Assembly: GCA_012628545.1 (NCBI GenBank)
Contig: GCA_012628545.1_3035.1
DNA: 64,000 bases
Source of the DNA: a phage
Reading direction: 5' to 3' (one strand)
Every line of letters starts with the position of its first letter. The first letter of the stretch is position 1. The translations under genes and the position numbers were made by a program. This document shows, piece after piece, positions 2,820 to 8,167 of this stretch. The notes beneath the pieces are model-generated. The model did not search any database, was not told where the DNA came from, and saw nothing but the letters and a program-made list of their open reading frames with translations.

Positions 2820-3230
2820 TCATTTTTTCTTATGTTGAATATTCCAAGGCGGGTTAAATAGCTTAATGAATAGTGGCTCCTCTAGGTCAATCGTTGCGAT
2901 TGTCATTGTACCTAACTCATTTGTCATAGAAAGATTAAAACATTGGCGGGCGTAAAATTCAACTTTGCTTCCTTCCTTTAGCGCAGCATGAATTAATGCA
3001 GATTTAGTAGAATCAGACGTTTTGTCTTTACGGTTAATAGCAGTTCTATAATAGTTTATTCTTTTACGTAAATTTTTAGTTTTTCCAATATAAACAAGCT
3101 CATCATTTATAGCAATAGCATAAATTACGTTATACTTGTTTGGAATAGATAATTGTTTTATACTTCCGTTGTCGTCTAATTCTAACTCAGTATATTTAAT
3201 AAATGAATATTCTGTTGCAATTTCTTTCAT
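2820..3230 (-). CDS. denA: endonuclease II (GIY-YIG family)
   Basis: GIY-YIG-like motif [17 protein letters not shown]...R...YY; 136 aa from [10 protein letters not shown]; located between rnlA and nrdB as in T4. Confidence 0.85.
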
Positions 3231-3237
3231 AATAAAA

Positions 3238-3253
3238 TGGGCCTTGCGGCCCA
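3238..3253 (-). terminator. hairpin terminator downstream of nrdB
   Basis: TGGGCC-TTGC-GGCCCA stem-loop followed on the minus strand by TTTTATT. Confidence 0.5.
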
Positions 3254-3257
3254 CTCC

Positions 3258-4436
3258 TTAAAAATATTTTTTAAAACTCATCATAACTTTATCATCAACA
3301 TCATTATCAATCTGTGCAACAAGGTAAGATGACAGTTCTACTTCTTGCGGCGCGGATTGAACATTATCAGAATTAAGGTATTCACGAATCCAAGGATATG
3401 GATGTTTAACCGGAGCATCGGTAATTGGGCATGGAAGACCGCACTGTTTCATACGAGATACAGTTAAGTAATCAATAAAGCTCCACATGCTATTTGTATT
3501 TAATCCAGGAACATCGCCATCTTTAAATAAATGAACTGCCCAATCTTTTTCTTGGCGGTTAACTTCCATGAAAATATCAACTGCTTCTTGTTCACACTCT
3601 TTGGCAATTTTAACCCATTCATCACCATCAGTGCCAAGTTGAAGTTGACGAATAATATATTGTGTACCTTTAAGATGAAGCTGCTCATCACGTGCAATGA
3701 ACTTCATAATCTTGGCATTACCTTCCATGATTTCCATATTCTTGTGGAAGTTAAAGGTACATGCAAAAGATACATAAAAACGAATAGCTTCCAATGCGTT
3801 GATTACGTGCAGGCAGAGGTAAAGAGAGCGCATTAGTTCACGTTTCCAATACATTTCATGCTCTATGGCATCTTCAATAACGTCTTCGTCTGCATTAATT
3901 TCTTTTTGGTATTCGATATCAGCTTTAGCGTTTTCCCAATAACGAGTTTTAATCAGAACATCATCATAATAACGACCAATAGATTCAGCGCGTTTCATAA
4001 TAGCTTCATCTAATACAATCTCATCAAATACCTTTGACGGATCAGTATAAAGATTTCGCATGATATGAGTATATGAACGACTGTGAATAGTTTCACTAAA
4101 AGTCCACGTAGCAACCCATGTATCAAGGCTTGGGTCTGAAATCAATGACATAAGTACAGCAGACGGCGCACGACCCTGAATGCTATCCAAAAGTGATTGA
4201 TACTTCAGATTATTAGTAAAAATATCTTGCTGATATTGAGGAAGCTTGTTAAATTGCGCAGCATCCATCATTAAGTTTACTTCTTCAGGGCGCCAGAAAA
4301 ATGACAACTGCTTTTCGGTTAAATCTTCAAAAACTTTATGACGTTGAATATCATAACGCGCAATACCAAGACCTGAACCAAAAAACATAGGTTCTTTTAA
4401 AACATCAACTGGATTTGTATTAAAAACTGTGCTCAT
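3258..4436 (-). CDS. nrdB: ribonucleotide reductase small (beta) subunit
   Basis: 392-aa uninterrupted ORF recognised as aerobic RNR R2 by overall similarity to T4 NrdB; contiguous (no intron). Confidence 0.9.
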   Translation of the reverse strand: MSTVFNTNPVDVLKEPMFFGSGLGIARYDIQRHKVFEDLTEKQLSFFWRPEEVNLMMDAAQFNKLPQYQQDIFTNNLKYQSLLDSIQGRAPSAVLMSLISDPSLDTWVATWTFSETIHSRSYTHIMRNLYTDPSKVFDEIVLDEAIMKRAESIGRYYDDVLIKTRYWENAKADIEYQKEINADEDVIEDAIEHEMYWKRELMRSLYLCLHVINALEAIRFYVSFACTFNFHKNMEIMEGNAKIMKFIARDEQLHLKGTQYIIRQLQLGTDGDEWVKIAKECEQEAVDIFMEVNRQEKDWAVHLFKDGDVPGLNTNSMWSFIDYLTVSRMKQCGLPCPITDAPVKHPYPWIREYLNSDNVQSAPQEVELSSYLVAQIDNDVDDKVMMSFKKYF

Positions 4437-6752: not shown

Positions 6753-7069
6753 AAGTCCTCAACTTGAAAATCGTCTTTAAACAATCGGTTAACTATATGA
6801 GCTATTATATCACCATGACACGGCTTTGGTTTACATGTGCATCCTAGCCTCATTCCACGTAAAGGCTCTAAATGTGCTTTAGTTATTTCTCCGGATTTAA
6901 TTCGACGTATAAAATCTTTTTTGAATAATTCAATGGCAGCCTCCCGGCTGCCAGCATCTTTACCGACGTAATTTCCCCAAAATGTACCACGGTGAATATT
7001 AACATCAAAGTCGGATTTGTATTTATTCACTACCCGGCATAGACGGCCCACGCTGGAATAATTCGTCAT
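6743..7069 (-). CDS. hypothetical protein, 108 aa
   Basis: ORF between nrdA and td (nrdA.x position); Cys/His-rich segment [11 protein letters not shown]. Confidence 0.45.
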
Positions 7070-7298
7070 ACTGTTTTTCCGTTAATACAGTAATATCATA
7101 GTAACAGTCAGAAGAAGTTTTAACTGTGGAAATTTTATTATCAAAATACTCACGAGTCATTTTATGAGTGTAGTATTTTTTACCATAAATGGTAATAGGC
7201 TGTTCTGGTCCTGGAACTTCTAACTCGCTTGGGTTAGGAAGTGTAAAAAGAACGGCACCAGAAGTATCTTTAAATCGTAAAATCATACATCCTCGCAA
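7023..7298 (-). CDS. hypothetical protein, 91 aa
   Basis: ORF between nrdA and td; overlaps neighbour as in compact phage operons. Confidence 0.4.
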
Positions 7299-7306
7299 TA
7301 ATAAAA

Positions 7307-8167
7307 TTACACCGCCATTTTTCCTTTAATTGGCAGATGAGATACATAGTTGTTAAGAACAAAATTATGAGGCTTTGCAAATTGACTCAACCAAAATACC
7401 TGCGATTCTGTGTCCCATTCATCAAATTCATCTGGAAATTTTAATTGTAATTCGCATAAATCCATAGGTTCACGACGTAAAATTTCTTTACATTGTTCTA
7501 CGTGATTCATATAGATATGAGTATTACCACCAGAAAATATCAAATCTCCAGGAATAAGATTACACATTTTAGCTACAATATGAACTAACGTAGCATATGA
7601 TGCAATATTAAATGGAAGACCGAGGAAAACATCTACCGAACGTTGATACCACTGCAAATCTAAATAGCCATTACGCACATTAAACTGATAGAACATATGA
7701 CAAGGCGGTAATGCCATATATTTAAGTTCAGCTGGATTCCACGCAGAAACAATTTGACGCCTATCATTCGGCAGTTTTTTAATACGATCAATAACTTCTA
7801 CAATTTGGTCTACACCGCCAAAATCACGCCATTGTTTTCCATAAATTGGACCAAGTTCACCGCTATGATATCCTAAATCTTTTGCCTGATTTTCGTAATT
7901 TTCATCCCAGACTGTTTTGCCTTGGATTAACGAATCGTGTTGAATTAATCGTAAATCATTGACATTTGTGCTTCCTGATAAAAACCATATTAGCTCAGCA
8001 ATGCATGCATTCCAGGCGAGCTTTTTAGTTGTTACTGCAGGAAAGCCTTTAGTTAAATCCCAACGCAATTTAGTACCGAACAGAGCAATTGTTCCTGTGC
8101 CTGTGCGATCATCGGTTTCATAGCCATTTTCAAAAATGTCTTTAATTAAATCTTGGTATTGTTTCAT
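7307..8167 (-). CDS. td: thymidylate synthase
   Basis: 286 aa; active-site region [11 protein letters not shown] and folate/dUMP binding motifs; uninterrupted (no group I intron). Confidence 0.95.

Follow-up and report, generated by a model that had tools for sequence, protein, structure and literature searches.

Seven homing-endonuclease loci of phage T4 are empty in a 64-kb stretch of a Tequatrovirus genome

The nucleotide-metabolism genes td, nrdB and nrdA of phage T4 are accompanied by group I introns and homing-endonuclease genes. Here, we analysed a stretch of 64,000 nucleotides from a phage (assembly GCA_012628545.1, contig GCA_012628545.1_3035.1), hereafter referred to as the window, in which these elements are missing. 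The window represents 64 kb of a genome of ~167 kb and holds 7 of the 15 homing-endonuclease loci listed for T4 (PMC2988022, Table 1), the other 8 lying outside it. All seven loci are empty: I-TevI in the td intron, I-TevIII in the nrdB intron, mobE, segG, mobA with the gene 60 bypass, segF and segA. We read the window as part of an ordinary field-type Tequatrovirus, a T2/RB51-like mosaic whose homing sites are in the empty state, and we give this explanation as a whole, including the nature of the phage, a probability of about 0.9. A preliminary description of this DNA, made from its letters, had reported the missing elements in the nucleotide-metabolism block and had spoken of a genome stripped of selfish DNA. 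Our analysis confirms what was observed and supports the interpretation in part. The phenomenon itself is ordinary and already known, T4 having been recognised for decades as the exception.

The decisive evidence for the absence of introns is that the reading frames are intact and colinear with the spliced exons of T4. When the window was aligned with the T4 genome (NC_000866) by blastn, the td intron with I-TevI (1017 bp) was found to be missing exactly at position 7618/7619, and the joined T4 td exons, which comprise 861 nt, match the window td position for position and codon by codon. The T4 nrdB intron (~600 bp) is missing at 3760/3763. The joined T4 nrdB exons comprise 1167 nt and the window nrdB 1179 nt, and the two align by codons with a single 12-nt indel. 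At the known sites, neither td nor nrdB has an insertion that breaks the frame, and the list of open reading frames (ORFs) agrees with this colinearity in giving td (286 amino acids, aa) and nrdB (392 aa) as the single uninterrupted frames that had been described. The earlier statement that nrdA and nrdB are only 51 bp apart, without mobE, also holds. About 700 bp of T4, comprising nrdB.1 and mobE, are missing at window positions 4436-4492, and the sequence of the remaining spacer is nearly identical in RB51. The denA product was said to be the only GIY-YIG protein here and a core enzyme, and Pfam, the six-frame profiles and its identity to the T4 protein all bear this out; it is a single-domain enzyme and not a homing endonuclease. 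The coordinates of these features, and of those described below, are collected in Table 1.

The remaining loci are equally empty. Between genes 32 and 59, and downstream of uvsX, short spacers stand at the places of segG and segA. Gene 39 encodes a fused large subunit of the topoisomerase. The gene 60 bypass (50 nt, translational), 60.1 and the mobA remnant are all absent, so that 1117 bp of T4 are missing at window positions 35625-35690. As had been described, the spacer between soc and gene 56 holds only small ORFs at the place of T4 segF; their products belong to PHROGs 5773 and 5782, and neither has a nuclease domain.

Searches of the whole window for homing endonucleases were negative. 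The 15 T4 homing endonucleases, compared with the window by tblastn, gave nothing better than E 0.2 except the denA self-match (99.3%), and E values were above 0.2 for all of mobA to mobE, I-TevIII, a full-length MobE and the intron ORF of phage TadeuszReichstein, the last two of which are described below. Profile hidden Markov models of the T4 seg, mob and GIY-YIG proteins, run unfiltered against 1171 six-frame segments, found only denA (E 0.03), while sensitive blastn of the T4 element DNAs against the window returned only chance-level matches or fragments of host genes. Scans with Pfam and PHROGs of all ORFs that lack a T4 orthologue revealed no nuclease. Considered by class, the window has no GIY-YIG homing endonuclease of the seg or I-TevI/II type, denA being the sole GIY-YIG match and the profiles giving nothing else in six frames. 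Nor has it an HNH homing endonuclease of the mob or I-TevIII type, the mob profile being empty and Pfam finding no HNH domain in the ORFs that have no equivalent in T4. The six frames of the window, the intervals named in the preliminary description included, yielded neither a homing-endonuclease domain nor a remnant of one, and Rfam detected no intron core in those intervals.

Each T4 element is a minority allele in the phage collection, and empty sites predominate at every locus. The comparison was based on the roughly 980 phage records that contain the block (979 were matched by megablast of window positions 2000-9000), 514 of them at an identity of at least 90%. The td intron occurs at a query coverage of at least 80% in 197 records and as a match of any extent in 260, and the T4 arrangement of nrdB intron, nrdB.1 and mobE occurs in 23. 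Records with segG number 142, those with segF 50, those with segA 26-27 and those with the cassette of bypass, 60.1 and mobA 41-43. Reviews describe T4 as the outlier among its relatives, "an oddity" (PMC2988022), and the published numbers of homing-endonuclease genes are 15 for T4, 11 for T6, 4 for RB51, 1 for T2 and none for RB26 and RB69 (PMC2993671, Table 5, Petrov et al.). Two phages with flanks ~97% identical to those of the window carry elements that the window lacks: JLBYU24 has a full-length MobE of 243 aa, with HNH and NUMOD1 domains, between nrdA and nrdB, while TadeuszReichstein has an nrdB intron whose 229-aa ORF is labelled a putative homing endonuclease. The lineage is therefore polymorphic at these sites. 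Taken as a statement of direction, "stripped of selfish DNA" is not supported, since the empty state is the majority, T4 is the outlier and the td flanks are unlike those of intron-bearing alleles.

A separate observation concerns mobE itself. The first 29 residues of MobE in JLBYU24 are those of T4 mobE (the stretches compared are 6717-7417 in T4 and 2937-3668 in JLBYU24, each in its own numbering). In the same interval T4 has two annotated ORFs, mobE of 141 aa and nrdB.1 of 83 aa, and by this comparison T4 may carry the full-length gene in split form.

We propose that group I introns and free-standing homing-endonuclease genes behave as presence/absence polymorphisms in the phage population. 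An element would spread when its endonuclease cleaves an empty allele in a co-infected cell and recombinational repair copies the element together with some flanking DNA. T4 would have gathered an unusually large set of such elements, and the td, nrdB, nrdA/nrdB, 32/59, 39, soc/56 and uvsX loci of the window would be in the uninvaded, empty-site state. No special stripping mechanism is needed.

Two stretches within the block differ from T4 beyond the missing elements. The 5' two-thirds of the window nrdB (3763-4436) has 83% identity to T4, compared with ~96% for its neighbours, and contains a replaced patch at about codons 165-200 in addition to the 12-nt indel. As judged by alignment, T4 is the divergent one at nrdB exon I, because 549 other records match its exon at no more than 80-90% identity. 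This divergence would fit a T4-specific co-conversion of the flanks with mobE and the intron. In td, about 34 residues near the C-terminus (approximately codons 235-268, window 7360-7470) are replaced when compared with T4. A compensated frameshift was considered as the cause and ruled out, as the two nucleotide sequences show no relationship there, differing at 20-23 of 30 positions. The window shares this segment with RB51, TadeuszReichstein and JLBYU24, and both fHoEco02 and SQ17 differ strongly from the window; it looks like a hypervariable patch in an enzyme that is otherwise 96% conserved.

Several points weigh against reading the window as uninvaded. An ancient loss of the elements is compatible with the sequence data. 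Only 64 of ~167 kb were seen, and homing-endonuclease genes may sit elsewhere in the genome (RB51-like phages have ~4). The Rfam model Intron_gpI (RF00028) has no match in the 64-kb window, either at the gathering threshold or at E<=5, and this negative is weak evidence because the control misses T4's own td intron. At the gathering threshold RF00028 misses both T4 introns, and a scan at that threshold was rejected as a sufficient intron test. In E-value mode it finds the T4 nrdB intron only (35.7 bits, E 2.6e-6). The td intron (10548-11564 in the numbering of the compared T4 stretch) goes undetected also at E<=5, presumably through the 738-nt I-TevI ORF inside it. Phage intron screens that use Rfam only will miss ORF-bearing introns, the T4 td intron included. 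An unfamiliar ORF-bearing intron elsewhere in the window would be detectable only by a broken frame, and none was seen among the T4 orthologues. Finally, the window td has 8 synonymous changes compared with T4 in ~50 nt of the I-TevI target, the protein being unchanged.

The clustering of these changes across the target raises the question of whether the empty td allele is a homing-resistant variant, in which synonymous substitutions block cleavage or binding by I-TevI, so that the site would be empty through resistance and not through lack of exposure. The allele is shared by several intron-minus phages, the window being identical across the homing site to RB51, TadeuszReichstein and JLBYU24, all of which lack the td intron. 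However, three of the changes, in exon II, are also present in fHoEco02, which bears the intron. The changes in exon I adjoin the insertion site, where the last six bases are CTCGGT in the intron-minus alleles and TTGGGT in the intron-bearing T4 and fHoEco02. The exon bases that adjoin the td insertion site form part of the P1 helix by pairing with the intron, and the exon I changes may equally reflect the needs of the intron. The cleavage motif CAACG is intact at 7641-7645, with both critical bases, C1 and G5, in place (PMC5009752), and its distance from the insertion site is that seen in T4. Moreover, I-TevI is tolerant of many substitutions (PMC5009752, PMC2988022). We consider a resistant allele unlikely.

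Secondary loss would give the same empty sites if selection for a lean genome had led a T4-like ancestor rich in elements to lose them, either through precise deletions or through recombination with alleles that were spliced or empty. Under the homing cycle model, elements are expected to degenerate eventually and to be lost (PMC5009752), T4 itself carries a degenerate I-TevIII and a degenerate mobA (PMC2988022, Table 1), and each of the seven window sites is cleanly empty. Nevertheless, tblastn, the six-frame profiles and blastn found remnants at no site, and most alleles at each locus are empty. Most td introns show at least 99% identity, which points towards empty alleles being basal and element-bearing alleles being nested and nearly alike, and reviews treat T4 as the gainer (PMC2988022). 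The td exon I flank next to the insertion site is informative here. It is unlike that of the intron-bearing alleles, and a recent precise excision would have kept the intron-type flank. We read the window as uninvaded, and we regard secondary loss as distinctly improbable.

The insert between frd and td calls for separate consideration. Its bounding repeat is a duplication of the junction of the frd stop and the td start, TAAATGAAA[T/C]AATAC, and the insert is present in 363 phage records, one T2 record included. The 115-aa ORF inside it is labelled "putative homing endonuclease" in two records of the BASEL collection (TadeuszReichstein and AndreasVesalius); RB51 and most other records call it "hypothetical", and two call it "dihydrofolate reductase". 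The protein family is small: clustering at 90% identity gives 3 clusters, and at 50% there are 17 representatives. No member has a Pfam match, the PHROG family is of unknown function, and no plausible catalytic set is present among the invariant residues. Structure prediction from 4 sequences was poor (predicted local distance difference test score, pLDDT, 61.5); when it was repeated with 19 sequences, a confident fold was predicted for which no match was found in the Protein Data Bank. No recognisable nuclease motif or fold was seen, and the homing-endonuclease label on this ORF is unsupported. At the same junction fHoEco02 has an unrelated ORF of 68 aa. Different phages thus carry different ORFs there, and the junction is therefore a hotspot for cassettes. 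The 417-bp cassette could be a new kind of mobile unit, its protein aiding its spread or being the cargo of a neighbouring nuclease; we regard this as very doubtful. That the window holds a homing endonuclease of an unrecognised family after all, with the 115-aa protein as the candidate, is highly improbable: the label in the two records, the absence of the repeat-bounded insert from T4 and its place next to td, a classic homing-endonuclease target, speak for it, and the missing Pfam match and catalytic residues speak against it.

The assignment to Tequatrovirus follows from 96-98.6% nucleotide identity to many Tequatrovirus records and from synteny. For window positions 2000-9000, the best match is Escherichia phage TH09 (98.6%), and many Tequatrovirus isolates, RB51 among them, come next at 96.6-97.6%; for positions 33000-57000 it is vB_Eco_EH2 (97.6%), and the phage collection contains no identical record. 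Alignment with T4 by blastn shows the same gene order from pseT.1 to gene 45. The colinear run comprises pseT.1, rnlA-denA-nrdB-nrdA-td-frd-32-59, the tail-fibre genes, rII, 39, dda, soc, 56, 61, 41, uvsX, 42, 43 and gene 45.

Other differences from T4 were noticed along this run. The dam gene, which in T4 lies between genes 56 and 61 (~900 bp), is absent at window positions 49177-49199, and tblastn found no Dam homology across the window (E>1.6). The TAGT-family protein that replaces beta-glucosyltransferase suggests, from its sequence, a DNA glucosylation pattern unlike that of T4. Instead of T4 gene 61.2 there is a shorter ORF of 118 aa at 50603-50959, which matches Anti-DarT factor A (AdfA) with E 9e-8 in the C-terminal half only (profile positions 113-211 of 211). 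Intergenic elements of ~60-115 nt, located at 27314-27426, 30474-30535, 30958-31051 and 57471-57571, are ~77-89% identical to several T4 intergenic regions and have the appearance of repeated regulatory cassettes. Several of the short insertions that distinguish the window from T4, such as 30742-30981 and 57231-57465, are located at or beside these elements.

Table 1 Features of the window discussed in the text, in window coordinates.
Feature	Position	Strand	Evidence and remarks
denA (endonuclease II), 144 aa	2820-3254	minus	Pfam GIY-YIG, E 5.4e-6; 99.3% aa identity to T4 DenA/EndoII over 144 aa
nrdB, one 392-aa frame	3258-4436	minus	ORF list; empty intron site at ~3761/3762
nrdA-nrdB spacer, 51 bp	4437-4487	minus	Empty mobE site; short hairpin GACTC..GAGTC
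nrdA, 754 aa	4488-6752	minus	ORF list; 94.9% nt identity to T4; annotated nrdA in relatives
nrdA.1 (DUF4326) and nrdA.2 (DUF5496)	6743-7298	minus	Pfam and T4/RB51 annotation; small conserved genes, also in T4
td, one 286-aa frame	7307-8167	minus	Empty intron site at 7619/7618; colinear with T4 exons
frd-td cassette, 417-bp insert relative to T4	8168-8580	minus	Direct repeat (14/15) at 8156-8170 and 8573-8587
115-aa ORF of frd-td cassette	8216-8560	minus	ORF list
Gene 32-59 spacer, 98 bp	12028-12125	minus	Empty segG site; T4 segG (~620 bp) absent; no segG homology
Gene 39, fused topoisomerase large subunit, 606 aa	35290-37110	minus	Pfam GyrB/Toprim across a single ORF
soc-56 spacer	48198-48618	minus	Two small ORFs at T4 segF position; no segF homology
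69-aa ORF, DUF7422	48214-48423	minus	Pfam; in soc-56 spacer
57-aa ORF	48446-48619	minus	In soc-56 spacer
Spacer downstream of uvsX, 77 bp	54782-54858	minus	Empty segA site; blastn against T4, Pfam, tblastn
TAGT-family glycosyltransferase, 282 aa	54859-55707	minus	Pfam TAGT (TET-associated glycosyltransferase), E 1e-9; in the place of T4 beta-gt

That introns and homing-endonuclease genes are patchily distributed among the T-even phages has been on record since the late 1980s and was reviewed in 2010, and the preferential inheritance of T4 markers near homing sites in crosses with T2 is likewise long documented. The present results have little import beyond correct annotation. They correct the direction of the comparison, in which the exception is T4 and not the window genome, they add a catalogue of seven empty T4 homing-endonuclease loci, and they show a nuclease label in public records to be without support.

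Compared with known phages, the window has the same gene order as T4 in the block, denA-nrdB-nrdA-nrdA.1-nrdA.2-td-frd, with 95-96% nucleotide identity over most of it. It differs from T4 in lacking the td intron, the nrdB intron and mobE, in the 83% identity of nrdB exon I with its indel, in the replaced td residues 235-268 and in the additional cassette between frd and td. JLBYU24 and TadeuszReichstein, whose flanks are about as close to the window as noted above, have the same td allele, but the MobE of the former and the nrdB intron of the latter are both missing from the window. RB51 is colinear with the window from nrdB to td, at 96.6% identity, and both RB51 and a T2 record have the frd-td insert. 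Phages of the T2, RB26, RB14 and RB51/RB32 type carry only a few homing-endonuclease genes, if any (PMC2993671, Table 5), and are recipients in T4 marker exclusion. The window differs from them as a mosaic of its own, identical to no record in the collection, and has no dam between genes 56 and 61. T2, as used in T4 x T2 crosses, resembles the window in having no mobE insertion between nrdA and nrdB (PMC2790892). In these crosses T2 is nicked by MobE and the flanking sequence is co-converted (PMC2790892, Wilson and Edgell). The link to marker exclusion made in the preliminary description is correct, and it belongs to the established biology of T4 x T2 (PMC2790892, PMC2988022). Conversion to T4 sequence was shown experimentally for T2 only, and by analogy with T2 it is reasonable to regard the window genome as a potential recipient, in which co-infection with T4 would convert the markers around the empty sites to T4 sequence.

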